Shown here one piece after another: positions 4,495 through 34,509 of a stretch of 34,509 bases of DNA (position 1 is the first letter of the stretch; each line of letters starts with the position of its first letter). The notes beneath the pieces are model-generated. The model searched no databases and had not been told where the DNA came from. It worked only from the letters and a program-made list of their open reading frames with translations. Location of the stretch: positions 1 to 34,509 of the IMG/VR virus record IMGVR_UViG_3300045988_143498; one strand, written 5' to 3'. The stretch comes from a virus. The translations under genes were made by a program, and so were the position numbers.

Positions 4495-5062
4495 CATTAC
4501 AAGAATTTTTGATGTTGAATTAAGAGCAAAACAAGGAGACAGCCGAGAAGTCGAAGGCTATGCGGTAGTGTTTAATGCTAGCACTGATTTAGGTTATTTT
4601 ACAGAAGAAATCGATAAACACGCTTTTGACAATTGCGATATGTCTGATGTTTACCTTTTATTCAACCATGATGAAAATCAAATTTTAGCTGGAACTGCAA
4701 ATAATAGCTTGCAGTTGAAGATAGACGAAAGGGGCTTATTTCAGACTTCACAAATCATTGATACAAGCATTGGCGAAGATATTTTTAAATTAGTAAAAAA
4801 TGGGCTAATAAAGAAAATGTCATTTGGCTTTAGCATTGACAAAGATGGTGGCGAAGAATGGATAAGTCACGAAGACAAAGACCATAGAATTATCAAAAAA
4901 ATTAACAAGCTTTATGATGTTTCGCTTGTTACTTATCCAGCGTATGAGCAAACATCAGCGTATGCCCGTTGCCAAAGTGATGAAATGGCAAACGAGTATT
5001 TAAGAAGAAAAGAACAAAGTAAAAAAATGGAGGAATTAATCAATGGAAAAAATCTTAAATAG
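4487..5062 (+). CDS. Prohead maturation protease (HK97 / S78 family-like)
   Basis: Motifs LLFNHD, MSFGFS and LYDVSLVTYPAYEQT. It lies directly upstream of the capsid gene. Confidence 0.85.
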   Translation: MNNITRIFDVELRAKQGDSREVEGYAVVFNASTDLGYFTEEIDKHAFDNCDMSDVYLLFNHDENQILAGTANNSLQLKIDERGLFQTSQIIDTSIGEDIFKLVKNGLIKKMSFGFSIDKDGGEEWISHEDKDHRIIKKINKLYDVSLVTYPAYEQTSAYARCQSDEMANEYLRRKEQSKKMEELINGKNLK

Positions 5063-7874: not shown

Positions 7875-8471
7875 ATGGGAAGAATTATCCACGGTAATCA
7901 AAGTTTTGGTTATGCGCCTATTGTTACGGGTGAAAGTGATAGCCCTAAATTTGGTACACCAGTAATGCTTGCTGGTATGGTCAGCTCAACAATCGAAGTT
8001 GAACAAGACACAACATCAATTTATGCTGATAACGAGGTATATTGCAAGGTTAAGGGTGCTAAAGTTAGAACCGCTGAAGTTGCTTTTAGATATATCTCAA
8101 AAGAATATGCCGAGTTTTTAGGTTTTAAACTTAATCAAAACGGTATGCTTACAGATACAGGCGACTTTGCAAATCACTGTTTCTTTTTTGAGACAGTTGA
8201 AGAAGATTGCACAACTGGAACTGAAACTAGAACATTACATTACTTATACAATGTTAAGGGTGCAGAACCTACAAAGGAAACAAGCACTGATGAAGAAGAA
8301 GTTGAAGCAATGGAATTATCAGTTGAGTATACAGCTAGTGAAAGTGATTTTGTAGTTGATGATAATGGCAAGAAATGTCAATATGGCTACATTACAAGAA
8401 CCGAACAAAACGCTACTGTTTACGATACATTTAAACAAAAGGTATTATTACCAACAACAGCAATTAGTTAA
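7875..8471 (+). CDS. Major tail protein
   Basis: 198 aa with a strong RBS, directly upstream of the chaperone and tape measure genes, and followed by an attenuating hairpin. Confidence 0.75.
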   Translation: MGRIIHGNQSFGYAPIVTGESDSPKFGTPVMLAGMVSSTIEVEQDTTSIYADNEVYCKVKGAKVRTAEVAFRYISKEYAEFLGFKLNQNGMLTDTGDFANHCFFFETVEEDCTTGTETRTLHYLYNVKGAEPTKETSTDEEEVEAMELSVEYTASESDFVVDDNGKKCQYGYITRTEQNATVYDTFKQKVLLPTTAIS

Positions 8472-8483
8472 AAAAGAAAGGGT

Positions 8484-8512
8484 GGGGCAATATAAGGTTG
8501 CCCCTTATTTTT
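8484..8512 (+). terminator. Stem-loop with T tract after the major tail gene (attenuator candidate)
   Basis: GGGGCAA (8484-8490), 7-nt loop, TTGCCCC (8498-8504), then TTATTTTT. It overlaps the TTG start proposed by the ORF track; an alternative ATG lies at 8516. Confidence 0.55.
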
Positions 8513-8950
8513 GAAATGAAAATAATTAAACATACATTTACTGTTCCAAGTTTACAAGTTGTTAATGGGGAACTTAAAGAAGTTGGCTCAAAAACAGAAA
8601 CTTGTACTTTTACATTATTAAGCAAAGGCATTGGGCTATATGAAGAATTGGCGGATGAGCCTTTAATGGCTTCTTTATTAAAGTTTAATAAAGACAGTGA
8701 ACAAGATAGCGTTGGACAATTGCTTGATAAGAATTTTATTAAAAACCTAGCTTGTGCTTCTTATGTGAAAATCGAAGGTAACGCATTTCACAATAATAGA
8801 AAAACTTGTGAGGAATTTAAGAAGAAACAATTTTATGAAAAAATCAATGAAGATTTAGACTTTATAGGTGAGCTAATTGAAATGGCTTCTGATTGCATTA
8901 ACGACAAAAAGATTGCAAACAAAGCCAAAAATTCAAAAAAAAAGAGATAG
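8498..8950 (+). CDS. Tail assembly chaperone (G-like product)
   Basis: Located between the major tail and tape measure genes, and ends just after an A9 slippery run. The start is uncertain (TTG 8498 or ATG 8516). Confidence 0.7.
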   Translation: MPLIFEMKIIKHTFTVPSLQVVNGELKEVGSKTETCTFTLLSKGIGLYEELADEPLMASLLKFNKDSEQDSVGQLLDKNFIKNLACASYVKIEGNAFHNNRKTCEEFKKKQFYEKINEDLDFIGELIEMASDCINDKKIANKAKNSKKKR

Positions 8951-9123
8951 TTAGCTACCCTAAAATGTGTGCGTTGCTAGTAGCTTCTAAAATACCGCTA
9001 GAATGGGCGGATAATCAATATTGGTGTACATTGAGCCAAGTTGTTAGTGAACTTGTTAAATACACTACCCCAAAAAAGAAGGAAAAAGTAAGCGCTAGTG
9101 AAATGCAAAACTTCATTCAATAA
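8498..9123 (+). CDS. Tail assembly chaperone -1 frameshift product (GT-like)
   Basis: The -1 frame is open from the A run (8935-8943) to TAA at 9121-9123. By my translation it reads ...KKEIVSYPKMCALLVASKIPLEWADNQYWCTLSQVVSELVKYTTPKKKEKVSASEMQNFIQ. Confidence 0.65.
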
Positions 9124-9135
9124 AGGAGAATTATA

Positions 9136-11193
9136 ATGGCTAATTCAGAAACAGGCATTACGATTAATTTTAGGGGCAATACAGCCGAGTTTGCGAGTGA
9201 TGTTGATGGTATTAATAAAGCTTTAAAACTATTGAGTAAGGATATCAAAGCGCTTAATAAAGAGCTTAAGCTAGACCCTACAAATGTAGAAACATTAAAT
9301 AATAAGTTTGATGAGCTTAAACAGAAACAAGAATTATTAACAAAACAAGCTAAAAACTATAGAGAAGCTATAGAAAACATGGGTACTATTGCTAACAATG
9401 AAGACCTTAATAAATTAGCCGACTTTCAAGGCAAATTAGCTGATGTTGAGGTTCAATTAAGAAAAGTCAATGAGGAAATGAACCTTGTCAATGTTGAAAG
9501 CATTAAAAACTTTTCATATAACCTAGATAAAGCTTGCAAGGTGCTTGATAATGTAGGTAATGCTCTTGATAGAGTAGGCAAAGCCTTATTACCTTTAAGT
9601 ACTGCAAGTGGTTTGGCTTTAGGAACGGGCATTAAATATAATCTTGAATTAGAAAAAACTCAAGTAGCATTAGAGAGAATTTTAGGCACTCAAGAAGAAG
9701 CTAATAAAGTCATGCAAGAGTTTATTAGCTTTAGTGATAAAACACCATTTAGCCCTAAAGAAATAACTCGTTGGGCGCAAATGATGATGGCTGGTGGTGC
9801 AAGTGTTGAAGAAGCAAGAAAAACCATTGAAGCATTAGGCAATGCAGTATCAGCCACAGGCGGTGGCACTGATGAAATGAATAGAATGATACAAAACCTT
9901 CTACAATTTAGAGGTGCTTCACCAGAACAAAGAGACTTAAAGCAATTCCAATATGCTTATATCGATATATACGGTGCTTTGAGCGACTATATGGGTGAAA
10001 ACGCAAGATTATTAAAGTCTAGTGAAATATCTTATGAGGATGTTATAGGAGCTTTAATTAAGGCTAGTGAAGAGGGCGGAAGATATGCAAATGGTATGGC
10101 TAGTGCCAGTGAAACAACCGCCGTTAAAATGGAGAAATTGCGCTATCAATTACAACAATTGGCTGGAGATTTAGCGGAAAGCTTAATGCCTACAGTTCAA
10201 GCAATGGTTGATAAGTTAAAAGAATTGATTGATAGATTTAAAGCATTAGACCCACAAACAAAGGAAATGATAACTAAAGCCTTATTACTTACTACAGCAT
10301 TAGCGCCTACTGTACTACTGTTATCCAAGCTCATATTAGGATTTAGTGGGTTAGGCAAGGCATTTAATGCAATTATAAAAAATAAAGATATTTTAATGTT
10401 TCTAGCAAATCTAACAACAAAATTTAAAGATTTAAGTACTCTAGTGTCTACCAAGTCAGCAGGCTCAAAACTATTAAGCTTTATTCCAAAATTAATATCT
10501 CTAACGGGTGGTTTGTTGCCCGTTATTGCGTTGGTTATTGGTGCATTGGTTTTGATGTATAAAAAGAGTGAAGCATTTAGATTTGCAATCAATAATCTTG
10601 TTAACGCAATAATGAATATATTAAAGCCTGTTTTCAATGTATTAGTAGGAATTATTAATAATATTGTCGTGCCAGCGTTTAAATGGCTATGGGATATCGT
10701 TGGCAAAGTGGCTAGTGTTTTAGGTAGTGTATTAGCACCTTTTATTGATTTGGTAACACTTGCTATTGGACTTTTGAACATAACTATCAATACGTGTATT
10801 GAGGTTTTTAAAGCCTTATGGGAAAAGATATCAGAAACCACAGCGTTTCAAGCGTTAATGATAACATTTAAAGACATTGGGGAAGCAATCAATTCGGTAA
10901 TTGAAAAGGTTAAAGCATTATTTGGCTGGTTTGGTAATTTAATCGATAGAGCAAAAGAGTTTTTAGGCTTGAATGACAAGATAAGCACTCATGATTACAA
11001 CGGTGTAACACATGGCGGAGGTGGTGGTCATGCGTGGAGCGGTGGCTTTGACAAGTACAATAGTGGTGGCTTTGCAGTTAATACAACAATCAATGTTAAT
11101 AACAATGGTTCACAAATTACTCGTAGTGAAGTCAACAGATGGGCTGATGTAATGGTTGATAGAGTGAATGAAAGATTAGGAAGGTTGGTGTAG
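9136..11193 (+). CDS. Tail tape measure protein
   Basis: 685 aa, the largest tail gene. It has a coiled-coil N-terminal half, hydrophobic segments and a glycine-rich C-terminus. Confidence 0.9.
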   Translation: MANSETGITINFRGNTAEFASDVDGINKALKLLSKDIKALNKELKLDPTNVETLNNKFDELKQKQELLTKQAKNYREAIENMGTIANNEDLNKLADFQGKLADVEVQLRKVNEEMNLVNVESIKNFSYNLDKACKVLDNVGNALDRVGKALLPLSTASGLALGTGIKYNLELEKTQVALERILGTQEEANKVMQEFISFSDKTPFSPKEITRWAQMMMAGGASVEEARKTIEALGNAVSATGGGTDEMNRMIQNLLQFRGASPEQRDLKQFQYAYIDIYGALSDYMGENARLLKSSEISYEDVIGALIKASEEGGRYANGMASASETTAVKMEKLRYQLQQLAGDLAESLMPTVQAMVDKLKELIDRFKALDPQTKEMITKALLLTTALAPTVLLLSKLILGFSGLGKAFNAIIKNKDILMFLANLTTKFKDLSTLVSTKSAGSKLLSFIPKLISLTGGLLPVIALVIGALVLMYKKSEAFRFAINNLVNAIMNILKPVFNVLVGIINNIVVPAFKWLWDIVGKVASVLGSVLAPFIDLVTLAIGLLNITINTCIEVFKALWEKISETTAFQALMITFKDIGEAINSVIEKVKALFGWFGNLIDRAKEFLGLNDKISTHDYNGVTHGGGGGHAWSGGFDKYNSGGFAVNTTINVNNNGSQITRSEVNRWADVMVDRVNERLGRLV

Positions 11194-13267: not shown

Positions 13268-14835
13268 TGTGGCGAGGATATGTTAAAGACCAATTAAATT
13301 TGGAGAGTGTGCCAAAGGCTTTTTTGAAGATTAAAAGTTTTAACATTAGTGAAGATTTACTTACAAGTGCTACTTCTAGTTTAGAATGTGTAGAAGTAAG
13401 TGATAATATTTCAAATGGTGATGTTTTAATCGTTGCAGATGAAAAGGGCATTACAAAGTATTTAGGTGTTATCAATTCGATTGATGAGAATACCATTAAT
13501 ACAACACAAATTCAATCTATCTATAAAGGTAATTGGTTATATGACTTACCTAACATTATAGGTGTTGGTGATGATAAATCGTGGCATTGGGATAGATACG
13601 ATTATTTAATTGACCCAACTAAAGATTATAAGCATTGGAATAATAGCGACTTGCCAAAGCTTGAAGCACTTGAAAACCTACAAATTAGAGAAAGTAGAAC
13701 TCTTTTAGATAGTTCTACTTCTTTAGTTATGAATTTAGCTGAAAAGTACACAGCGTGCGCTACTACTTATGTTTATAGTGAAACAAGAAAGAATATCACA
13801 ATGGTATTTTCATGTGACAACGGTGGTATTTTATATGTAAATGGTGCTGATGTTGGCTCATATGTTTATTATGACAGTTCTACTCAAGCTCAAAGAGTAC
13901 CTATTGAATGCCCTGTTACAATTCGTAAGGGGTGGAACAAGGTTCAAGTTGTTTATAGCAAAGAGACTGGAAATGATGGCTGGTTAGTTACTATAAATGG
14001 TTTCCATTTAAACGAATACTTTACAGAACAAACAAGTAAATATACTTCAAATGTTACTTCATTAGAAGATACTTTTGCACAAGCCTTAAGATTATATGCA
14101 AATGGCAAAATGCGAGACAGCAATTACACTGATGACTTAATCAAACAAAGATTATCTTCAATTGAAATAAAAACATCTTCTCAAACACAGGGAGCTTTTT
14201 TAACTCAAGAAGATACTTATGTATGTGATATGGAAGAGTTTATCTATTCTTTGTATAGTCGTTATCAAATCCAATTAACATTTGATATTCCTTATCAAGG
14301 CAAGTGTACTTGCACTGTTGGAAAATCCAACATTGGAGAAATCAAGATAGGCAATAACACAAACGCTATAGTCGATATATCACCTATTACAGAAGTTGAA
14401 GAAACAAATAGATTAATTATCTACAATAAGGATGGAACTTATAGAACTACTTATGTCACTAAAGCTGATGGAAGTAGGGAAAAAGAACCTATAGGCACTG
14501 CAAATAGGTTTGGAGTTGTTAAAACTGCAATTGTGTTTAGTGATGACGACGACGAGACTTTACAATGGGGATATTTACCTAAAATGTACAATCATAAGTT
14601 AACTTTTATACTTAAAATGTTTGCTAATAGCTTATATAAGTATGATGATTTTAAATTAGGTATGCCATTAGCAATATGGAAAGATACCGACTACTTTTCT
14701 ACTATCCTTACAGGAAGGCAAATGACAAAGGATGAAAATACACCTATTAATGAAGTTAGTTATACTTGTGGAACGGTTAGAACAAAGTTGACCGAAAAGC
14801 TATTAATCAAATATGGGGTGCAAAATGTTAGATAA
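13267..14835 (+). CDS. Tail-associated (Tal-like) baseplate protein with PA14-like insert
   Basis: 522 aa, positioned after Dit. Residues ~100-250 carry a PA14-like pattern (FSCDNGGILYVNGADVG ... VTIRKGWNKVQVVYSKETGNDGWLV). Confidence 0.5.
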   Translation: MWRGYVKDQLNLESVPKAFLKIKSFNISEDLLTSATSSLECVEVSDNISNGDVLIVADEKGITKYLGVINSIDENTINTTQIQSIYKGNWLYDLPNIIGVGDDKSWHWDRYDYLIDPTKDYKHWNNSDLPKLEALENLQIRESRTLLDSSTSLVMNLAEKYTACATTYVYSETRKNITMVFSCDNGGILYVNGADVGSYVYYDSSTQAQRVPIECPVTIRKGWNKVQVVYSKETGNDGWLVTINGFHLNEYFTEQTSKYTSNVTSLEDTFAQALRLYANGKMRDSNYTDDLIKQRLSSIEIKTSSQTQGAFLTQEDTYVCDMEEFIYSLYSRYQIQLTFDIPYQGKCTCTVGKSNIGEIKIGNNTNAIVDISPITEVEETNRLIIYNKDGTYRTTYVTKADGSREKEPIGTANRFGVVKTAIVFSDDDDETLQWGYLPKMYNHKLTFILKMFANSLYKYDDFKLGMPLAIWKDTDYFSTILTGRQMTKDENTPINEVSYTCGTVRTKLTEKLLIKYGVQNVR

Positions 14836-15283
14836 GAATAAATGGTCACAATTTGGAAAAGATGGGCTAGAGCCTACTTGTATCACGATACACAATACAG
14901 GCAATTATGATATGACAGCAAGGGAGTTATTTGATTATTTAAACAATGAATGTTTAACTTCTCAAGGTTGTCATTTTTTAGTTGATGATAAGGAAATAAT
15001 CGAGGTTATGCCTATTTCGTGGAAAGTATACCATACAGGCAAGGGCGAAGATTATGCTTTTAACAATTCAATTGCTATAGAAATTTGTTCAAGTCTTGAT
15101 GATGAGTTGTATCTCAAAGGGCAAGAAAAAGCAATTAGGTTAATTAAAAGTTATATGGATAAATTCAATATCCCAAAAGAAGAAATATATTTCCATATTG
15201 ACTTTAACCCCACCACATATTGCCCTTGCAATATTTTAGATTTATACAAAACAAAAGAGAATTTTTTAAATAAATTCTTTTAG
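14825..15283 (+). CDS. N-acetylmuramoyl-L-alanine amidase (Amidase_2 / PGRP-type catalytic domain only)
   Basis: CITIHNTGN, HFLVDD, YHTG, AIEIC and FHIDF..TYCPC match the Amidase_2 zinc-ligand and catalytic pattern. I chose ATG 14825; the ORF track starts at 14813. Confidence 0.8.
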   Translation: MLDKNKWSQFGKDGLEPTCITIHNTGNYDMTARELFDYLNNECLTSQGCHFLVDDKEIIEVMPISWKVYHTGKGEDYAFNNSIAIEICSSLDDELYLKGQEKAIRLIKSYMDKFNIPKEEIYFHIDFNPTTYCPCNILDLYKTKENFLNKFF

Positions 15284-16626: not shown

Positions 16627-16851
16627 ATGAAATTGAACGATAAAACTTACGATATTTTATGTTGGATTGGCAGAATTGTGATGCCAAGTTTAGCGGTGCT
16701 TTATACAACATTAGGAGATATTTGGGGTTTACCTTATACTAGTGAAATCCCAGCTACTATTATGGGGTTAGATGTCTTCTTAAATGCTTTATTAGGCATT
16801 AGTGCTAATACTTACTACAAAGAAAAAGCAAATCAAAATACAGAAGTTTAG
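16627..16851 (+). CDS. Holin
   Basis: 74 aa with two hydrophobic helices (IGRIVMPSLAVLYTTLG and IPATIMGLDVFLNALLGISA) and a polar charged C-tail. It lies just upstream of the lysin gene. Confidence 0.7.
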   Translation: MKLNDKTYDILCWIGRIVMPSLAVLYTTLGDIWGLPYTSEIPATIMGLDVFLNALLGISANTYYKEKANQNTEV

Positions 16852-16889: not shown

Positions 16890-16926
16890 AAAATGACTAA
16901 ATTGAATTGAAAATGACTAAATTGAA
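16890..16926 (+). repeat. Tandem 17-bp perfect direct repeat (period 20) upstream of the lysin gene
   Basis: AAAATGACTAAATTGAA occurs at 16890-16906 and again at 16910-16926. Confidence 0.9.
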
Positions 16927-16936
16927 AGGAGTTAAT

Positions 16937-18418
16937 ATGCAAAAAGCAATATTACCTTTAAGATACATAGGAATAAGTCAGCCAATGAATGGCAAGACCT
17001 CACATATAGGGCTTAAAGCCATAGATTTTGGCTGGAACTCAAATTACTATGAACAATCAACAGTATTATTAGCGCCCTTTGATGGCAAAGTTGTATGGAA
17101 AAAAGGCTCAAGCAATACAATAGCTTTTCAATCTAATGAAAAAGTTGAATATGCTGATGGCACAGTTGATTATATGACTGTTATTACTGCACATGATAAT
17201 AACGCACCTAGTGTCGGTAAAACATTTAAGCAAGGTGAAATTTATTCTCATAGTGGAACTGCAGGCGGTGTGCCTTTGCATTGCCATTTAGAAGTACAAA
17301 AAGGCAAGTTTCAATCTTATACAAGTATCAAAAACACAAGCTATGATGGAAGATATAACAGTTATATTTTTCCTAACACTTATATCCCATATGAAGCTTT
17401 GTTTATAAGAAATGATGAACTATTTACTGCTAATAAGGCTAATAACCCTTATACATGGAAGAAGGTAGGAGAGATGAGTAATTTAATTAAAATTGAAAAA
17501 GACCCCAACTATGACTACAAGTGGTCAGTTGATGGCAACCGTTATGGTGATAAGTACGATATCACAACACAAAATGGTTTTGGCGATACAAAACTTGAAA
17601 AAGAAGGTTGGGAGCTTGTTTTAAAAACTAATGCTTCATTATTCTATGGTTGGAATGACAACGGCATAATCAAACACTTTGCGTGCGGTTTAGAGAAATC
17701 CCGTGGAGTTAACAATCAAGAGTTAGAAATGGACTGCGTAAAAGACTACAACTCATGTATGGCTATTGCATGTGTTGGTGGTGAATTATATTTTGCTAGT
17801 CAAGAGTGGATAATCAATAATAAGTTAGAAGAATGTTACGGAGCAGTAACAGGATTAGGCTTAATATTAGGTGGTAAAGCACGAAATGATATGCACAAAG
17901 GTTTTGATGGTCAATTTAATCAATTGGCTGGTAGAACAATTATCGGTGAAGATAAAGATGGCAATATTATGTCTTATTCAATCAAAGGTGATGATAATAA
18001 AGGTGGTTTAACAGGCAAACAAGCTCAAGAAAAGTGCCTTGAATTAGGTTTCTACAATGCAATTATGTTAGATGGTGGTAGTAGTGTATTTAGGCAATAT
18101 GAAGGAAAGTATGATATTTCCACAGGTAGAAAAGTTAAAAACGCACTATTGCTTTACCGTAAAAAGAAAACACAAAAACCACAAGAACCAACAGAACCAA
18201 CTATTGACTATAAAACAAAGTACGAAGAACTCGAAAAAGCTTATAATGACTTAAACAGTGATTATAAGGCGCTAGAGAGCGACTACAAGGCTTTAAGCGT
18301 GGAGAACATAGAATTAACCAAGAAATTAAAAAAGCTCTCCACGGAGCTAGAATTGGTCAAAAACGATAATGCGCTTTTAAGTGACAAATTAAAGAAGATT
18401 AAGGAGATTGTTAATTAA
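16937..18418 (+). CDS. Lysin: M23 peptidase + phosphodiester-glycosidase (NAGPA)-like domain + C-terminal coiled coil
   Basis: GTAGGVPLHCHLEVQKG matches the M23 HxH motif. TNASLFYGW ... AIMLDGGSSV resembles NAGPA/DUF2233. The C-terminus has a DYKALESDYKAL repeat and heptad-like sequence. I chose the start at ATG 16937 (RBS AGGAG); the track start at 16907 lies inside the tandem repeat. Confidence 0.65.
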   Translation: MQKAILPLRYIGISQPMNGKTSHIGLKAIDFGWNSNYYEQSTVLLAPFDGKVVWKKGSSNTIAFQSNEKVEYADGTVDYMTVITAHDNNAPSVGKTFKQGEIYSHSGTAGGVPLHCHLEVQKGKFQSYTSIKNTSYDGRYNSYIFPNTYIPYEALFIRNDELFTANKANNPYTWKKVGEMSNLIKIEKDPNYDYKWSVDGNRYGDKYDITTQNGFGDTKLEKEGWELVLKTNASLFYGWNDNGIIKHFACGLEKSRGVNNQELEMDCVKDYNSCMAIACVGGELYFASQEWIINNKLEECYGAVTGLGLILGGKARNDMHKGFDGQFNQLAGRTIIGEDKDGNIMSYSIKGDDNKGGLTGKQAQEKCLELGFYNAIMLDGGSSVFRQYEGKYDISTGRKVKNALLLYRKKKTQKPQEPTEPTIDYKTKYEELEKAYNDLNSDYKALESDYKALSVENIELTKKLKKLSTELELVKNDNALLSDKLKKIKEIVN

Positions 18419-18792
18419 TGCAATTATTCATCACTTTCCTAACTTCAGTGTGCGTGCCTATTATTGTGGCTTTGATATCGAGTGGCACTTCTGCAAATAA
18501 ACTTTCAAAAAAAATCAGAGTTGATGAACTATTAGAAGAATTTAATAAACTTAATTATAAAGTCGATTGTAATAAAGCTGATAATTGTAGAGCAAGGATA
18601 TTACGATTTAATGGGGAAATCAAAAGAGGTGTACATCATGATGAAGAAGAATTTAATGATGTAATCAATTCAATTGATAATTACGAAGACTTTTGTAAAG
18701 ACCACGAAAAATACTCAAATAACAAAGCAGTATTGGCAATCGAGAACATCAAAAATGTTTATAAGAAAGCATATAGTAAGAATGATTTTTAA
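18418..18792 (+). CDS. Membrane-anchored protein of the lysis cassette (unknown function)
   Basis: 124 aa, ATGA-type coupling to the lysin gene, N-terminal TM helix (FITFLTSVCVPIIVALISSG). Confidence 0.5.
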   Translation: MQLFITFLTSVCVPIIVALISSGTSANKLSKKIRVDELLEEFNKLNYKVDCNKADNCRARILRFNGEIKRGVHHDEEEFNDVINSIDNYEDFCKDHEKYSNNKAVLAIENIKNVYKKAYSKNDF

Positions 18793-18793
18793 A

Positions 18794-18818
18794 GGGGGAT
18801 TTATTCCCCCTGTTTTTT
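18794..18818. terminator. Bidirectional terminator between the lysis genes and the minus-strand operon
   Basis: GGGGGA (18794-99), 5-nt loop, TCCCCC (18805-10), with T6 downstream and an A/T run upstream. It overlaps the 3' end of CDS 18801..18992. Confidence 0.7.
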
Positions 18819-18992
18819 AATGTCTTCTCTAATTAAATTCAAGATATAACTTGATACTGATTTTTGTTTGTTTAGGTGTTCTATTACATCTACATCACTT
18901 TTTGGTATTAATGCAGTAACACGCTTATAAGTCTTTTTCATGAAATCAGCGTTATATTTTGCAAAATCGAAGTAATCATCTTTATTAGTCAT
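18801..18992 (-). CDS. Ribbon-helix-helix (CopG/Arc-like) DNA-binding protein
   Basis: YKRVTALIPKSDVDVIEHLNKQKSVSSYILNLIREDI fits the beta-strand / helix / helix RHH pattern. It is the last gene of the operon and a paralog of CDS 32784..32954. Confidence 0.65.
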   Translation of the reverse strand: MTNKDDYFDFAKYNADFMKKTYKRVTALIPKSDVDVIEHLNKQKSVSSYILNLIREDIKKQGE

Positions 18993-18995
18993 AAT

Positions 18996-19226
18996 TTATC
19001 TTCCTACTTTATAACCATTAAACAATAAGTTAATATCTATTCTTTCTGTTTTTGGTTTTTGATAATTATCTTTATTTTCTTTAACCCAATCCATCATTGC
19101 TTTCTTTGTTTTAAATGTCTTTATATAGTCTTTATCTTTATCATATAAATCATACGTTGTGTGCTCTCTCTTTATAAGAGTATTCTTTTTGTAATACCAA
19201 TCTTTTCTTAACTTTTCTAGTTTCAT
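18996..19226 (-). CDS. Hypothetical protein (76 aa)
   Basis: I chose the start at the ATGA overlap with the upstream gene's stop (track start 19241). No recognised motif. Confidence 0.5.
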   Translation of the reverse strand: MKLEKLRKDWYYKKNTLIKREHTTYDLYDKDKDYIKTFKTKKAMMDWVKENKDNYQKPKTERIDINLLFNGYKVGR

Positions 19227-19654
19227 TTTATTTTCACCCAATAATTGCCTACTGTTTTATAGCCACAATTCCAAGTATCATACAATACACCATCAACGCA
19301 AGCTACCAAGTGGTGCGCTAATCTTAATACATAAGTACCTTGTTTATGGTTTTTTGCGAACTCATCAGCAGTATACTTTTTACCACTAGCTTTTTTAGGC
19401 TGTTTCATTTTTGTAAAGTCTTCATTATTTAAGTATGTTTCATAAGCCAAATCGCAATTAGGAACATCACCTAGTTCTTTTCCTGTATTGCATAGATTAT
19501 CATATGTTTCATACCAATCTTTATTAGTAGCTTTTGAAATTGCCCTTATAACACAATCATCAGTGAGATTGTGTTTAGGGTTAGCGTTATACCATTTAAA
19601 GGTATTAGTATCTGGAAATTTCTTTTTTCTGTTTATTTCTTTAAGTGTTAGCAT
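19223..19654 (-). CDS. Hypothetical protein with a papain-like Cys...His...Asp arrangement
   Basis: 143 aa. DDCVIRAIS is a candidate nucleophile Cys and LAHHLVACVDGVLYDTWN a candidate His/Asp. The fold assignment is inference only. Confidence 0.5.
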   Translation of the reverse strand: MLTLKEINRKKKFPDTNTFKWYNANPKHNLTDDCVIRAISKATNKDWYETYDNLCNTGKELGDVPNCDLAYETYLNNEDFTKMKQPKKASGKKYTADEFAKNHKQGTYVLRLAHHLVACVDGVLYDTWNCGYKTVGNYWVKIK

Positions 19655-19676
19655 TTGTTTATTTTCCTTTTCCTTT

Positions 19677-19910
19677 TTATTTTTTTAATTGTTCAACTAT
19701 TTTGTCAAAATCTTTATTATTTGTAGTGTGTTCATAGATATGTCTTAAGACTTCAAAGTTCTTGCCATTATCTCTAATCTCACATTCCAACAAGTCTTTG
19801 TTTACTTTAACTTCGTCAATTAGATAATTTATTATTCTATCTAATAGTTTTTGTTCTCGCAAATATTCCCGTTTAAGAAAATGTAAATAATCTTCATCAC
19901 GTTCAAGCAT
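19677..19910 (-). CDS. Hypothetical protein (77 aa), first gene of the minus-strand moron operon
   Basis: Strong RBS GGAAGGAGG, located directly downstream of a consensus promoter. Confidence 0.5.
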   Translation of the reverse strand: MLERDEDYLHFLKREYLREQKLLDRIINYLIDEVKVNKDLLECEIRDNGKNFEVLRHIYEHTTNNKDFDKIVEQLKK

Positions 19911-19937
19911 TTTGGTTACCTCCTTCCTATTACACTT

Positions 19938-19963
19938 ATTATTATAATGATTATTATAATAAT
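19938..19963. promoter_or_regulatory. 11-bp inverted repeat operator candidate overlapping the promoter spacer and -10
   Basis: ATTATTATAAT, 4-nt centre, ATTATAATAAT. The palindrome arms are perfect. Confidence 0.55.
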
Positions 19964-19969
19964 GTCAAG
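19941..19969 (-). promoter_or_regulatory. Consensus sigma-70-type promoter for operon 19910..18801
   Basis: On the minus strand: TTGACA (19969-19964), 17-nt spacer, TATAAT (19946-19941). Confidence 0.7.
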
Positions 19970-19994
19970 TCTTTTGAATAAATTTGTGTTAAAA

Positions 19995-20015
19995 TAAGGT
20001 CATTTATAAGGTCAC
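19995..20015 (+). repeat. attP arm-type repeat pair 1 (TAAGGTCA x2, 12-bp period)
   Basis: TAAGGTCAT at 19995-20003 and TAAGGTCAC at 20007-20015. Confidence 0.55.
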
Positions 20016-20177
20016 AAGATTTTAAAAGTAAAGAAAAAGCCCATAAATAGGGCATTTTAGATACTATGGTGCCGACACAACAGATTGAAGAGAATGCAAT
20101 ATTTCGTTCTATAATGTGTTAAATCATCCCATTTTATCGCATTTTGTAACATTTCATTTTATTTCGTTTTGAAAATT

Positions 20178-20198
20178 TAAGGTCACAAATAAGGTCAC
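20178..20198 (+). repeat. attP arm-type repeat pair 2 (TAAGGTCAC x2, 12-bp period)
   Basis: TAAGGTCAC at 20178-20186 and 20190-20198, in the same orientation as pair 1 and just downstream of the integrase 3' end. Confidence 0.55.
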
Positions 20199-20258
20199 GG
20201 ATATGTTAAAATAAATATGGTTAAAATTCATTTATATACCTCCCTTCTTGAACACGCA

Positions 20259-22553: not shown

Positions 22554-22699
22554 TGTTAGTAATTGTAATTTTAACAACATTACTAATGTATTGGGGCTTA
22601 TTTTCAGAGCCAACAGTTGTATTAGTATTTTCAATACCAACAGTCTTATGTGAATTAATAATTAACTATTTTATTGAGAAGGAGGAAAAACATGTGTAA
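22553..22699 (+). CDS. Small hydrophobic ORF (48 aa)
   Basis: TAATG coupling on both sides. By my translation: MLVIVILTTLLMYWGLFSEPTVVLVFSIPTVLCELIINYFIEKEEKHV. Not in the ORF track. Confidence 0.35.
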   Translation: MLVIVILTTLLMYWGLFSEPTVVLVFSIPTVLCELIINYFIEKEEKHV

Positions 22700-23337
22700 T
22701 GAGTAGAAGGGTTAAAACATCCGCAGACCAAAACGATAAGACTTTACCTATTAAAGATATTAAACAACAAAACAATATGTTGTACTACTGGTTAAACAAA
22801 AAGAATAAAGCCAATGGCTACAATGCGTATATTGCTGATAGAAATTACTTGTTTATCTTTTTAGGATTAAACACCGCCTTTAGAGCAGAAGACTTGTTGC
22901 AATTAAGACCCAAAGATTTAGATGGTGGCTATGTTCGTATCAAAGAAAACAAAACAGGCAAAACACAAAACTTTAAGATGAATAACCAAGTCTATAAAGA
23001 AGTACAAGAATACTGCAAAAGAAATGACATAGGTGATTATGACTATCTGTTTCAATCAAGAAGAAAGGATGGTGTTATTAGAGCAATATCAAGACAACAA
23101 GCATGGAGAATGGTTAAGAATACTGGAAAGGAGGTAGGTATCAAATATAAGTTTGGTGTTCATAGTCTTCGTAAAACATTTGGTTACAACTTTATAAGCA
23201 AAGGCGGGAACGTATTAACACTAATGAAAATGTATAATCATAGTTCACCAGCTATCACTTTACTCTATGTAATGTGGGGTACTGATGATGTAGAAAATGA
23301 ACGTAATAATGTGTTTAACGGAGTAGGCTCTTTGTGA
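22699..23337 (+). CDS. Short tyrosine recombinase (catalytic domain only, 212 aa)
   Basis: LNTAFRAEDLLQL (Arg I), VHSLRKTFG (HxxR) and YNHSSPAITLLYV (His, Tyr). It has no long N-terminal core- or arm-binding domain. Confidence 0.8.
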   Translation: MSRRVKTSADQNDKTLPIKDIKQQNNMLYYWLNKKNKANGYNAYIADRNYLFIFLGLNTAFRAEDLLQLRPKDLDGGYVRIKENKTGKTQNFKMNNQVYKEVQEYCKRNDIGDYDYLFQSRRKDGVIRAISRQQAWRMVKNTGKEVGIKYKFGVHSLRKTFGYNFISKGGNVLTLMKMYNHSSPAITLLYVMWGTDDVENERNNVFNGVGSL

Positions 23338-27796: not shown

Positions 27797-27996
27797 TAGA
27801 TAAACCTACAAGACTAGTACCTAACAAGCACTACAAGAAAGAGGTTCTTATGATGTGCGATAAACAAGACATAATCGATTATTGCCACGAAATGGAACAA
27901 AGGTTATTTCAAGCAATGCTGATAATCGATAAGTTAATCGAACGAAAAGAATTAAACGATAAAGACAAAGCGTTGTTAGAGGAAATCTATGGATAA
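27793..27996 (+). CDS. Hypothetical protein (67 aa)
   Basis: Starts at the last conserved junction (AAGGAGTTAGGGCTATGA) and is translationally coupled to the next gene. Confidence 0.5.
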   Translation: MIDKPTRLVPNKHYKKEVLMMCDKQDIIDYCHEMEQRLFQAMLIIDKLIERKELNDKDKALLEEIYG

Positions 27997-28894
27997 TGAA
28001 TGGCTTTTGTTTGATAGGGTAGAAAAAATCAAACAAATCATAAATCAATATGGCGAGGATAACTTCTATATATCATTCTCTGGTGGTAAAGATAGTACGA
28101 TATTACACCATTTAGTGGATATGGCATTACCCGATAACAAGATACCGAGAGTATTTAGTAATACGGGGATTGAATACAATATGATATTAGAGTTTGTAAA
28201 AGACCAAGCCATTAATGATAGTAGATTTAAGATAATATATCCTAAAAAGAATATTAAAAACATGCTTGAAAATGTTGGTTATCCATTCAAATCAAAGCAA
28301 CATTCTCATATTGTAGGAATATTCCAAAGAAGCGGTAAAAGTTTATCAGTTAGAAAATATTTAAAAGAAGTTGAAGGTAATAATGTGATATGTTGCCCTA
28401 AAAAATTGCAATATCAATTTACAGACAATTTTAATATTAAGTTAAGTGATAAATGTTGTTATGAATTAAAAAAGAAACCATTTAAACAATGGGAAAAAGA
28501 AAACAACAAAACCATTGCAATCACTGGAATGCGAACCGAAGAGGGTGGGCAAAGAATGGGGATGAATTGTATTGTTATGGATAAAGATAAAAAAATTATA
28601 AAGTTTCATCCATTATCTGTTGTTTCTAACGAATGGGAAGAATGGTTTATTAAAAAATTCAATATAGAACTATGTAAGTTATATTATCCACCCTATAACT
28701 TTGAACGCACAGGATGTAAAGGTTGCCCGTTTGCACTACAGTTACAAGAACAATTAGATTTAATGGAAAAACTTTTACCCAACGAAAGAAAACAATGTGA
28801 ATTTATATTTCAACCTGTTTACGAAGAGTATCGAAGAATAGGTTATCGACTAAAACCATATAAACAAATGAAATTATTGGAGGAGATAAGATGA
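27989..28894 (+). CDS. PAPS reductase / PP-loop ATP-pyrophosphatase family protein
   Basis: ISFSGGKDSTILHHL is an SGGxDS PP-loop. The C-terminus has the cysteine pair RTGCKGCPF. 301 aa. Confidence 0.8.
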   Translation: MDNEWLLFDRVEKIKQIINQYGEDNFYISFSGGKDSTILHHLVDMALPDNKIPRVFSNTGIEYNMILEFVKDQAINDSRFKIIYPKKNIKNMLENVGYPFKSKQHSHIVGIFQRSGKSLSVRKYLKEVEGNNVICCPKKLQYQFTDNFNIKLSDKCCYELKKKPFKQWEKENNKTIAITGMRTEEGGQRMGMNCIVMDKDKKIIKFHPLSVVSNEWEEWFIKKFNIELCKLYYPPYNFERTGCKGCPFALQLQEQLDLMEKLLPNERKQCEFIFQPVYEEYRRIGYRLKPYKQMKLLEEIR

Positions 28895-32968: not shown

Positions 32969-33163
32969 CTAGAGCGCAATCATGTTGCATTCTTTTAATA
33001 AGTCTTCTTTTCCATTTGTACAAATTCGATAGACTTTAATTGTTGCGTTCTCTATATCAACATTGTCTTTCATTTCTTTGGTGTAATATTTTAGTGCTTC
33101 TTCAAAAGAAACAAACGTTTCATAATATTTGTAATCGTTTATAGTTGTTTCAACTTTATACAT
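32969..33163 (-). CDS. Hypothetical protein (64 aa)
   Basis: I chose the start at the ATG with RBS AAGGGGG; the track start is 33193. Confidence 0.5.
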   Translation of the reverse strand: MYKVETTINDYKYYETFVSFEEALKYYTKEMKDNVDIENATIKVYRICTNGKEDLLKECNMIAL

Positions 33164-33174
33164 ATTTAGCCCCC

Positions 33175-33768
33175 TTAAAAACTTACACCGCAACCAATAG
33201 CGTATATTTGTGTGCTTTCTTCTTGTTCTTCAATTTCATCGTACTTTGCATTGCTCCACTCTTCAGCCTGTTCGTATGCATTCCATTGGCTGTTATTTGT
33301 GAACTCTTGTTCAATGTAGCTAGTTGTTACTTTGCCGTTCTCATGTTCTTCAATTTTAACCCACGCAGTATAAGTACCGATTGAACAACCTATATAATAA
33401 CCACTTTGTTCAATGTCGCAATAGTCCCAATAGTCGTTTGGGTTTGTTTTAACTTTTTTCAAGAAGTCCGCTTCATTTGTTGCTTCTTCTTCTTCTATAG
33501 CTTTTTCAACATCAAACTCATTAACTTCAATGCCAAATTCAGTCACTAACAAGTAATTAATGCCGTGGTCTGAAAGTTCCCAGTAAGTGGTTGTAAATTC
33601 TTCCAAAGCGTTTAGTGCTTCTTCTTCAGATTCAAATACTTGAAGGGTCTTTCTATCGCTATCATAATAAATAGTATCACCTTGTTTATAGGCTTCATCT
33701 GGATAGTTTAAAGAGTGCTTCACTCTTGGGTACTCGTGCGTCCCTTTGTTTAAATAATAAAGTTTCAT
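33175..33768 (-). CDS. Strongly acidic hypothetical protein (197 aa)
   Basis: By my count ~43 D/E versus ~14 K/R, including EEEEATNEAD and DEIEEQEE tracts. It is the first gene of a minus-strand operon. Confidence 0.6.
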   Translation of the reverse strand: MKLYYLNKGTHEYPRVKHSLNYPDEAYKQGDTIYYDSDRKTLQVFESEEEALNALEEFTTTYWELSDHGINYLLVTEFGIEVNEFDVEKAIEEEEATNEADFLKKVKTNPNDYWDYCDIEQSGYYIGCSIGTYTAWVKIEEHENGKVTTSYIEQEFTNNSQWNAYEQAEEWSNAKYDEIEEQEESTQIYAIGCGVSF

Positions 33769-33958: not shown

Positions 33959-34507
33959 ATGAAATTTACAAAAAACAACGAATATAATTCACTAGAAATC
34001 AGCTTTGAAGAAAAGCCAAGCGAAAAAGTAAGAGAAATATTGAAAGCTAACCATTTCAGATGGCACAGCGTTAAAAAAGTGTGGTATGGCTACAAAACCC
34101 AAGAAGAGATTGAAAAAGCTCTAAATGGCTTAGATGCAACAAAAGAAGTTAAACCAGAACAAAACAACCACAGTTTGAAAGTTGGTGATATATTAAGCAG
34201 CTCATGGGGTTATGACCAAACAAACAACGATTTTTACAAAGTTGTTAAAACCAGTAAAAGTTGCGTATGGCTTATAGAAGTATCACTTCCAGTCAAAGAG
34301 AGAAAGGGCATTTCAGGTATGTCGGAGGATAGAAAGTATGATATCGAAAATGCTAAACCTTGTAGCAACGATGAAACACCATTCAGAAGAACCGTATACA
34401 ACTACAGCGCCAACAAAGAACCTAAATGTGACTCCGTTTCAATCTCTGACTATGAAAGAGCACACAAATACAACGGTGAATGGTTGTATTGTAGCTGGTA
34501 TGCTTAA
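33959..34507 (+). CDS. Hypothetical protein (182 aa)
   Basis: Starts at ATG 33959 after the RBS AGGAGG. The N-terminal segment is LEISFEEKPSEKVREILKANHFRWHSVKKVWYGY. Its 3' end is duplicated at window positions 1-53. Confidence 0.6.
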   Translation: MKFTKNNEYNSLEISFEEKPSEKVREILKANHFRWHSVKKVWYGYKTQEEIEKALNGLDATKEVKPEQNNHSLKVGDILSSSWGYDQTNNDFYKVVKTSKSCVWLIEVSLPVKERKGISGMSEDRKYDIENAKPCSNDETPFRRTVYNYSANKEPKCDSVSISDYERAHKYNGEWLYCSWYA

Positions 34508-34509
34508 AT
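34455..34509 (+). repeat. Terminal overlap copy 2 (identical to 1..55)
   Basis: Exact 55-nt identity with the window start. Confidence 0.95.

Follow-up and report, generated by a model that had tools for sequence, protein, structure and literature searches.

A compact gut phage cassette in which a promoter, an overlapping palindrome and a putative regulator are kept while the cargo genes change

The window analysed here is the whole of IMG/VR virus record IMGVR_UViG_3300045988_143498 (34,509 nt), and its subject is a cassette of four minus-strand genes, g1 to g4, that lies between the lysis genes and the integrase-proximal attachment (att) region. We lean modestly towards reading this cassette as an autoregulated accessory-gene operon that would work like an acr-aca (anti-CRISPR and anti-CRISPR-associated) operon. 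The regulatory part of the reading is well supported by comparison of related loci, in which a consensus promoter, a perfect palindrome overlapping it and the last gene, g4, stay constant while the genes between them are exchanged. An anti-defence or host-takeover role for that cargo is suggested by the architecture and by the genomic neighbourhoods of g2, the most constant cargo gene. The kind of system, an autorepressed accessory or anti-defence-type operon, is already known; here it comes with a regulator that looks like a ribbon-helix-helix (RHH) protein and with a widespread, uncharacterised phage protein predicted to be a cysteine hydrolase.

Architecture of the cassette

An earlier reading made from the sequence alone had described four tightly coupled minus-strand genes of 77, 143, 76 and 63 amino acids (aa), and these sizes are correct. 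The first, g1 (19910-19677, 77 aa, acidic, isoelectric point (pI) 5.6), belongs to no known family and fills a variable first cargo slot. It is followed after 22 nt by g2 (19654-19223, 143 aa, basic, pI 9.0), a predicted papain-like hydrolase of phrog_3754, whose TGA is overlapped as ATGA by the start codon of the optional cargo gene g3 (19226-18996, 76 aa, very basic, pI 9.7). The last gene, g4 (18992-18801, 63 aa), starts 3 nt after g3 and encodes a probable RHH DNA-binding protein, the candidate autorepressor. All four proteins are hydrophilic and lack a signal peptide (grand average of hydropathy, GRAVY, -0.76 to -1.39). Searches of g1 to g4 against Pfam, NCBIfam and PADLOC returned nothing above noise, and in PHROGs only g2 has a strong match, with g3 and g4 matching families of unknown function weakly. 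No match to g1, g3 or g4 was found by tblastn against phages, and g1 has just six homologues, every one of them in the phage lineage of the window.

Upstream of g1, the hexamers TTGACA (-35, 19963-19968, minus strand) and TATAAT (-10, 19941-19946, minus strand) form a sigma-70-type pair scoring 12/12. The perfect hexamers of the sequence-only reading are thus there, with a spacer of 16 nt and not the 17 nt it gave. This is the sole exact TTGACA-N16-18-TATAAT in the window, where 0.02 are expected; such a pair occurred in 2 of 100 shuffles. From the usual promoter spacing, transcription would start near 19934, and a Shine-Dalgarno sequence, AGGAAGGAGG (19919-19928, minus strand), stands 8 nt upstream of the g1 ATG. 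The perfect 11-bp inverted repeat with a 4-nt gap that had been seen to overlap the promoter is present at 19963-19938 and reads ATTATTATAAT-AATC-ATTATAATAAT. This candidate operator begins at the last base of the -35 hexamer and takes in the whole of the -10, which falls entirely inside its right arm. Perfect 11-bp inverted repeats with gaps of 0-8 nt number two in the window, against an expectation of 0.2 per window and of 0.006 per 348-nt intergenic stretch; no second copy of the palindrome was found elsewhere in the window with up to 3 mismatches allowed.

At its other end the cassette meets the convergent 124-aa gene that follows the endolysin, and a guanine-cytosine (GC) hairpin, AGGGGGA-loop-TCCCCCT (18793-18811), stands between the two genes. 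The hairpin has a 7-bp stem with 5 G-C pairs and holds the g4 stop codon in its loop. For the 124-aa gene, on the plus strand, it has the form of a canonical terminator; read on the minus strand, the 7-bp stem runs into UUAAAAAU, a poor U-tract, so that the bidirectional terminator proposed earlier is only half canonical.

A constant unit with exchangeable cargo

To compare the cassette across its genomic settings, we fetched loci coding for these proteins or their relatives, approximately 25 for g4 and 66 genome loci for g2. A metagenome scan for g4 contributed two of these loci, a scan of IMG/VR for g4 found nothing, and tblastn of g4 against plasmids gave only matches at E >= 0.1. The loci fall into eight forms. 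Form A is the g1-g2-g3-g4 order of the window, also present in L002 and L004; form B is g1-g2-g4 with g2 and g4 overlapping (L088-L092); form C has an 85-aa gene inserted, as g1-85aa-g2-g4 (L093-L095); and form D repeats this with g1 reduced to a pseudogene (L001). In form E, from another type of prophage that carries a serine recombinase, an unrelated 101-aa gene takes the g1 slot, giving 101aa-g2-g4 (L078, L080, L081; the unrelated gene was noted in L080). In form F (L009), a g2 at 41% identity precedes a g4-like 55-aa gene, with a serine recombinase on one side of the pair and an amidase endolysin on the other. Form G comprises orphan g4 homologues (72-74% identity) on bacterial chromosomes (L073-L075, L082), and form H a different operon, 78aa-ADP-ribosylglycohydrolase-97/126aa-g4, adjoining an ISL3 transposase and cas1-cas2 (L076, L077, L083, L084). 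Homology connects the 97/126-aa gene of form H with the 85-aa gene found in forms C and D, and g3 is missing as a clean indel from L001 and L003 as well as from the L088-L095 variants. In every cassette g4 is the last gene, and it closes cargo sets as different as g1-g2-g3, g1-g2, g1-85aa-g2, pseudo-g1-85aa-g2 and 101aa-g2, or no cargo at all.

Against this turnover, the promoter region hardly changes. Across 20 loci of forms A-E and G, the sequence TT[G/T]ACATTATTATAATAA[T/A]C[A/C]TTATAATAAT is near-invariant, with the -35 hexamer reading TTGACA or TTTACA in all 20. The palindrome is the exact 26-mer in 16 of these loci, and the other four differ by an AAAC spacer and one changed arm base. 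The roughly 32 nt of promoter and palindrome are conserved, in a near-invariant core of approximately 45 nt, and the DNA on both flanks has diverged. The 20 loci span the tyrosine-integrase prophage lineage (with four cargo variants), the serine-recombinase prophage and bacterial chromosomes. Since promoter, palindrome and g4 are kept while the cargo varies, we take these three as the constant unit and, judging from these loci, the cargo as exchangeable between phages.

The orphan g4 genes carry the same promoter and palindrome (L073 4931-5216, L074, L075 and L082) and lie between genes for a DUF234 ATPase and a pseudouridine synthase. In L073, a TTGTGACC motif akin to the repeats of the att region is found upstream of the orphan g4. 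The same locus holds a g4 paralogue (2036-2502, 71 aa, 52% identity) that comes after a 40-aa open reading frame (ORF) and ends a two-gene operon. Its promoter, TTGACA-17-TAATAT, is overlapped by a different perfect 9-bp palindrome, AATGTGTTG-N8-CAACACATT. A different palindrome at the same place of the promoter is the pattern that a co-evolving cognate regulator and operator would be expected to show; as a compact case of such co-evolution, the locus would keep its value should the anti-defence reading fail.

The form H cassette extends over 3492-5216 of L076, with counterparts in L077, L083 and L084, and its ADP-ribosylglycohydrolase has 273 aa. The g4 homologue adjoins cas1-cas2 in L076, L077 and L083; no CRISPR array was found beside these cas1-cas2 genes in the DNA examined. 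Separately, L076 contains a palindromic element of about 36-42 nt, GATTGCAGAGGGTA...TACCCTCTGCAATC, in three copies (4728-4765, 8200-8241, 8608-8649), one of them within the 97-aa cassette ORF.

g4 as candidate autorepressor

The g4 family comprises about 140 representatives at 50% clustering and has no Pfam model. Its members share the pattern F-D/N-x3-Y-x3-Y-x-K-x2-Y-K-R, followed by a short strand and two helices, and g4 ends directly after helix 2 with no C-terminal extension. The sequence-only reading called the last gene an RHH protein, which is probably right, although every match that points there is sub-threshold. Comparisons by profile (E 0.97), hhalign (P 0.064) and Foldseek (E 2.8) all give P22 Arc repressor as the sole PDB match, and the alignment to it is in register, with strand RVTALIP against QFNLRWP and then two helices, SVSSYILNLIREDIKKQGE against SVNSEIYQRVMESFKKEGR. 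Among 75 relatives of g4, Pfam gave RHH_7 in four and RHH_1 in one, all below the cut-off. The g4-like gene of L079, which occupies the slot of the RHH adaptor ParR behind an actin-like ATPase, also points to a DNA-binding protein. Compared with the Arc/MetJ/CopG superfamily, in which no Pfam RHH model reaches its cut-off for g4, the protein has an extra conserved N-terminal segment, FDFAKYNADFMKKTYKR. The AlphaFold2 (AF2) monomer model is all-helical with a predicted local distance difference test score (pLDDT) of 68, and at such a low score it is unusable as evidence on the fold; poor AF2 monomer models are common for obligate dimers.

The same reading proposed that g4 binds the palindrome and regulates its own operon. 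Binding is probable: promoter, palindrome and g4 travel together across cargo sets and genomic contexts, and the paralogue has a palindrome of its own. DNA binding and repression by g4 would fit this co-occurrence.

g2 as a predicted papain-like hydrolase

The product of g2 matches phrog_3754, a family of unknown function, at E 1.5e-29 (residues 17-139 against profile positions 6-141 of 145). In 36 homologues D33, R37 and D126 are invariant, and C34, H115, N23, N25, W128 and Y138 occur in at least 90%. The Cys, His and Asp motifs that had been read as papain-like are therefore present, with H115 as the second His of AHH and the acidic residue located in YDTW (D126), not in VDG. The AF2 model, with a pLDDT of 97.3, places Cys34 at the N-terminus of a helix (34-43), and the DSSP strands E115-120 and E123-126 hold His115 and Asp126; along the secondary structure this is the papain-like arrangement. 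Family conservation, this arrangement and the structural neighbours found by Foldseek agree in favouring the papain-like reading. Those neighbours in the PDB are Tae4 (4j30, the top match, E 0.23), Josephin-2, the C39 domain of PCAT1 and USP5/TssM, all of them distant and non-significant (TM-scores, for template modelling, of 0.30-0.46; E >= 0.2). In BFVD, 22 phage proteins match g2 at E <= 0.001; nearly all are unnamed, and they come from phages of Enterococcus, Pseudomonas, Acidovorax, Sinorhizobium, Sphingomonas and Cellulophaga, among others.

Sequence comparison does not tie g2 to a named enzyme. There is no family match for g2 in Pfam or NCBIfam; across the members of its family Pfam gave only sub-threshold matches to Tae4 (1 of 36, E 0.005) and to the papain-like Peptidase_C23, and a PDB sequence search with the g2 profile and two distant members returned chance matches only. 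As no significant match to C39, Josephin or Tae4/NlpC-P60 emerged, g2 is filed as papain-like in fold only, under no named peptidase family. With the papain-like Cys-His-Asp/Asn hydrolases, such as the Tae4 amidase, the Josephin deubiquitinases and the C39 bacteriocin-leader peptidases, it shares the nucleophile Cys at a helix N-terminus and the His and Asp on neighbouring strands; it differs from most of them in its much smaller size and in motifs of its own (YNANP, DCVIRAIS, KQP+K, VGNYW). We predict that g2 is a cytoplasmic Cys34-His115-Asp126 hydrolase of this type, a peptidase, amidase or isopeptidase. Longer forms and domain fusions of g2 (L056, L061, L064) offered no informative partner, and no phage papain-like counter-defence enzyme or anti-Bil deubiquitinase matching g2 was found in the literature.

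The range of phrog_3754 takes in prophages of Clostridia and other Bacillota, Bacillus and Geobacillus phages and Lak megaphages. By tblastn, g2 homologues were found in Geobacillus phage GBK2, in the Tsamsa-like Bacillus phages of about 165 kb and in Lak megaphages, phage members such as GBK2 gp35 and Izhevsk gp014 showing 42-47% identity. These phrog_3754 members are the true family of g2. None is characterised, gp014 being annotated as a 'putative peptidase', and the early-region copies differ from the window in having neither a g4-type regulator nor a cassette promoter. Elsewhere, members of the g2 family are found for the most part in early or replication blocks whose genes run on the same strand. 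Homologues are found after RecA and, in GBK2, upstream of RecE/RecT/SSB; in Bacillus phage Izhevsk, about 9.5 kb into the record counted from its left end, the homologue adjoins a Ser/Thr kinase, and an ocr-like anti-restriction gene is three genes away. An unrelated phage has adjacent g2 (73%) and g3 (90% identity) homologues in its early region, after an SNF2 helicase and with no g4 (L005 5983-6649, and L006), and the g2-g3 pair seems to move as a unit. About 30 loci of Oscillospiraceae and Acutalibacteraceae prophages (L018-L058, for example L038 4476-8982) keep a fixed order around distant g2 homologues: metallophosphatase, DUF7768, a sigma-r4-like helix-turn-helix (HTH) gene, g2, and then four conserved family-less genes (~165, 70, 255 and 145 aa). 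Set beside these neighbourhoods, the lineage of the window appears to have placed g2 under a private, self-limiting promoter.

Proposed mode of action and alternative explanations

If the cassette follows acr-aca logic, its operation can be outlined as follows. On DNA entry, host RNA polymerase would fire the promoter at once, because no repressor is yet in the cell and a consensus promoter needs no phage factor. From a short-leader mRNA, the cargo (g1, g2 and g3) would be produced in a burst. As g4 is encoded last, this small, dimeric, RHH-type repressor would accumulate only after the cargo had been made, and it would then bind the 26-bp palindrome, covering the -10 and touching the -35, and shut the operon off. 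In a lysogen, the same loop would keep the cassette at a low set level. The most constant cargo, g2, would most likely cleave a host protein or conjugate to the benefit of the infecting phage. We infer this timing of expression from the arrangement of the operon; a burst followed by shut-off is established for acr-aca operons and, more recently, for the RHH regulator Aca14 (PMC13551039).

The likeness to acr-aca systems (Aca1/Aca2, AcrIIA1-NTD) lies in a strong promoter under an inverted repeat, in variable small cargo, and in a small conserved regulator, here one predicted to bind DNA. Orphan host copies of the regulator, some beside CRISPR-Cas, are a further likeness, represented here by the g4 homologues. 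The differences are that g4 is not a helix-turn-helix protein, that the cargo includes no known Acr, that the main cargo is a 143-aa enzyme-like protein, and that the cassette is known from sequence alone. In Listeria phages, the N-terminal domain of AcrIIA1 (AcrIIA1-NTD) represses the acr promoter through a palindrome, and orphan copies of it in hosts, which often adjoin CRISPR-Cas, serve as 'anti-anti-CRISPRs' (bioRxiv 10.1101/787200). Parallels here are the g4 orphans with the same operator and the g4 homologue next to cas1-cas2. The orphans could be comparable host 'anti-anti-defence' repressors or, equally, prophage remnants, to which the att-like motif upstream of the L073 copy would point. 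A closer counterpart in protein class is Aca14 of Pasteurella multocida. This RHH repressor recognises an AT-rich inverted repeat that overlaps the -10 of predicted anti-defence operons; it has a helical extension in addition to its RHH core and also controls neighbouring operons (PMC13551039). Aca14 is Proteobacterial and is linked to AcrIF/AcrVA genes and csx20 (PMC13551039). Going by the published description of Aca14 (WP_005725436.1), both palindromes are AT-rich and overlap the -10 of their own operon, and the helical extension of Aca14 parallels the conserved N-terminal extension of g4, which is predicted to be helical. They differ in that the window holds a single operator, whereas Aca14 acts on neighbouring operons too.

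Several observations weigh against this reading. The cargo has no match to known defence or anti-defence families in Pfam, PHROGs, NCBIfam or PADLOC, with no dedicated Acr or anti-defence library among those searched. Window relatives apart, a g4-like neighbour of g2 was seen in only one of the 66 g2 genome loci (L009). The RHH assignment of g4 is weakly supported, with matches below threshold throughout and a poor AF2 monomer. No such palindrome precedes the ADP-ribosylglycohydrolase cassettes, whose last gene is a g4 homologue. Being built of TATAAT-like, AT-rich sequence, the palindrome could owe part of its conservation to conservation of the promoter. The orphan g4 copies, if prophage remnants, could share the element by descent and hence would not count as independent evidence. 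Finally, the stretch between lysis genes and att is the classic place of lysogen-expressed morons.

That last point belongs to an alternative that we rate as unlikely, namely that the cassette is a moron for lysogenic conversion, exclusion or defence, expressed from the prophage to help the lysogen (for example by blocking superinfecting phages), with g4 merely setting the level. Much of the architecture suits it: the cassette has its own promoter and hairpin terminator (the latter weak on the minus strand), is found at the end of the prophage with the late operon on one side and att on the other, runs opposite to the late genes, and deviates in composition, its 1-kb bin having the lowest GC of the window (0.276). 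Its promoter is also independent of the CI/Cro-like switch at 21.5 kb, and cargo turnover is moron-typical as well. Against it stand the relatives of g2, which lie in early or replication regions on the early-gene strand and not in a separately transcribed prophage-end cassette, the lack of PADLOC matches, and the lack of any hydrophobic or signal-peptide protein (GRAVY -0.76 to -1.39), unlike typical superinfection exclusion (Sie) proteins. The early or replication placement of the g2 family, together with the absence of a hydrophobic protein, favours a role in the infection phase over that of a membrane exclusion moron. The sequence-only reading had allowed for either an acr/aca operon or a moron. 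It is supported in part (the operon unit, the tie between operator and g4, and the papain-like g2), and these two points sharpen it towards acr-aca-like logic. No cargo protein matches a known anti-defence protein in the libraries searched, so an anti-defence function is a prediction.

A second alternative concerns g2 itself, which might be a Tae4/NlpC-P60-like cell-wall amidase, an auxiliary lysis or host-takeover factor whose target would be peptidoglycan or its cytoplasmic precursors. Tae4 is both the top Foldseek match in the PDB (4j30, E 0.23) and the best sub-threshold Pfam match (1 of 36, E 0.005), and the Cys-His and His-Asp spacings of g2 (81 and 11) resemble those of Tae4. The cassette also adjoins the lysis module, and g2 is near amidase endolysins in L009 and L010. 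We nevertheless consider it improbable. The Tae4 match is non-significant, with a TM-score of 0.30 over 89 columns; g2 is transcribed opposite to the lysis genes, carries no wall-binding domain and is far from lysis genes in most phages; and the phage genome already encodes a 503-aa putative endolysin with a NAGPA domain as well as an Amidase_2 protein in its tail module.

About as improbable is the view that the palindrome is no operator and is AT-rich promoter sequence kept by descent, with g4 acting, for example, as a ParR-like adaptor or as a regulator of other genes. Besides the TATAAT-like arms and the form H cassettes with g4 and no palindrome, a weak promoter-like match on the plus strand at the palindrome would fit it, as would the slender RHH evidence and a relative of g4 in a partition-type context: in L079 a g4-like gene comes after an actin-like segregation ATPase, the position in which the RHH adaptor ParR is encoded. 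Three findings speak for an operator instead. A perfect 11-bp repeat is expected only 0.006 times in the intergenic stretch, the core is near-invariant in three genomic contexts while its flanks have diverged, and the 52%-identity paralogue has a different perfect palindrome at the same promoter place.

A toxin-antitoxin-like pair, with g2 as papain-like toxin and g4 as RHH antitoxin also repressing the operon, is very improbable. In its favour, RHH antitoxins commonly autoregulate, variants lacking g3 have g2 and g4 side by side or overlapping (ATGA), and the pair recurs in L009 at 41% g2 identity, but g4 lies downstream and lacks a C-terminal toxin-binding extension, g3 can sit between the two, and a type II module was rejected because g2 and g4 occur independently, most g2 homologues being without g4 and g4 being found alone or with other cargo.

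The most productive route to anti-CRISPR and other anti-defence genes has been through autorepressed operons that keep their regulator and swap their cargo, and to our knowledge few anti-defence genes are known from human gut metagenomes. Gene discovery in gut phages could use as its marker the 26-bp operator of the acr-aca-like cassette described here, together with the 63-aa regulator family, which no Pfam model covers. It also makes g2 a concrete test case for the uncharacterised phrog_3754, being short and confidently modelled, with a triad to mutate and natural variants with and without particular neighbours. A bolder proposal, which we hold to be doubtful, is that g4 founds a new RHH 'Aca-like' regulator family of Bacillota gut phages, that its palindrome marks anti-defence cassettes, and that g2 is a new class of counter-defence enzyme. 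If so, phrog_3754 would span 34-kb temperate phages to Lak megaphages as a small cysteine isopeptidase or protease, which would remove or cleave a host immune component, such as a ubiquitin-like conjugate or a Gly-Gly-type processing site, in the manner of its Josephin and C39 neighbours. The g1, g3, 85-aa and 101-aa genes and the ADP-ribosylglycohydrolase would then be further inhibitors, and the orphan g4 copies, including the one next to cas1-cas2, would be host 'anti-anti-defence' repressors.

Genome context and additional features

Nucleotides 1-55 of the window are identical to nucleotides 34455-34509. The window thus represents a complete phage genome of 34,454 bp (GC 28-35%) whose assembly closes into a circle. 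No DNA-level match to GenBank phages was obtained by megablast with the cassette region and 25 kb of the window; the phage lineage itself is found repeatedly in human gut metagenome assemblies, including Hadza samples. The structural and lysis genes form a plus-strand block that includes a holin (16627-16851), a 503-aa putative endolysin (16907-18418), assigned by placement, with a NAGPA domain and a C-terminal coiled coil, and the 124-aa gene (18418-18792). A minus-strand block contains the tyrosine integrase (340 aa, 21281-20259) and a small HTH gene; the CI/Cro-like switch is at 21.5 kb. The cassette sits between the two blocks, in agreement with the earlier description of a self-contained operon between the lysis genes and attP. 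Between the cassette promoter and the integrase gene, an att-type region (19987-20220) carries repeated TAAGGTCACAA / AAATAAGGTCA motifs, which would be integrase arm sites.

Some further features of these genomes were recorded. The 124-aa gene begins at the endolysin stop codon, encodes a hydrophobic N-terminus and matches phrog_37604, a family of unknown function (E 4e-24); it is kept in the phage lineage of the window, is missing from the L080-type prophage, and may encode a lysis accessory protein. The Amidase_2 protein within the tail module (14813-15283, plus strand) is a second cell-wall-enzyme-type domain besides the NAGPA endolysin. In the early region, a 301-aa protein with a PAPS-reductase domain (27989-28894, plus strand; Pfam E 2.5e-18) belongs to phrog_424, whose category is 'moron, auxiliary metabolic gene and host takeover', and a second tyrosine-recombinase-domain protein (22699-23337, plus strand, 212 aa, phrog_216) is kept in related phages. 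A second minus-strand island, at 32969-33768, has reversed GC skew and may be another inserted accessory unit; it consists of a 74-aa and a 197-aa ORF, neither of which has a Pfam or PHROG match. Finally, L088 and L090 have a reverse transcriptase gene (RVT_1, 344 aa, 8376-9410) between the tail genes and the holin, absent from the window, which could be part of a diversity-generating retroelement.

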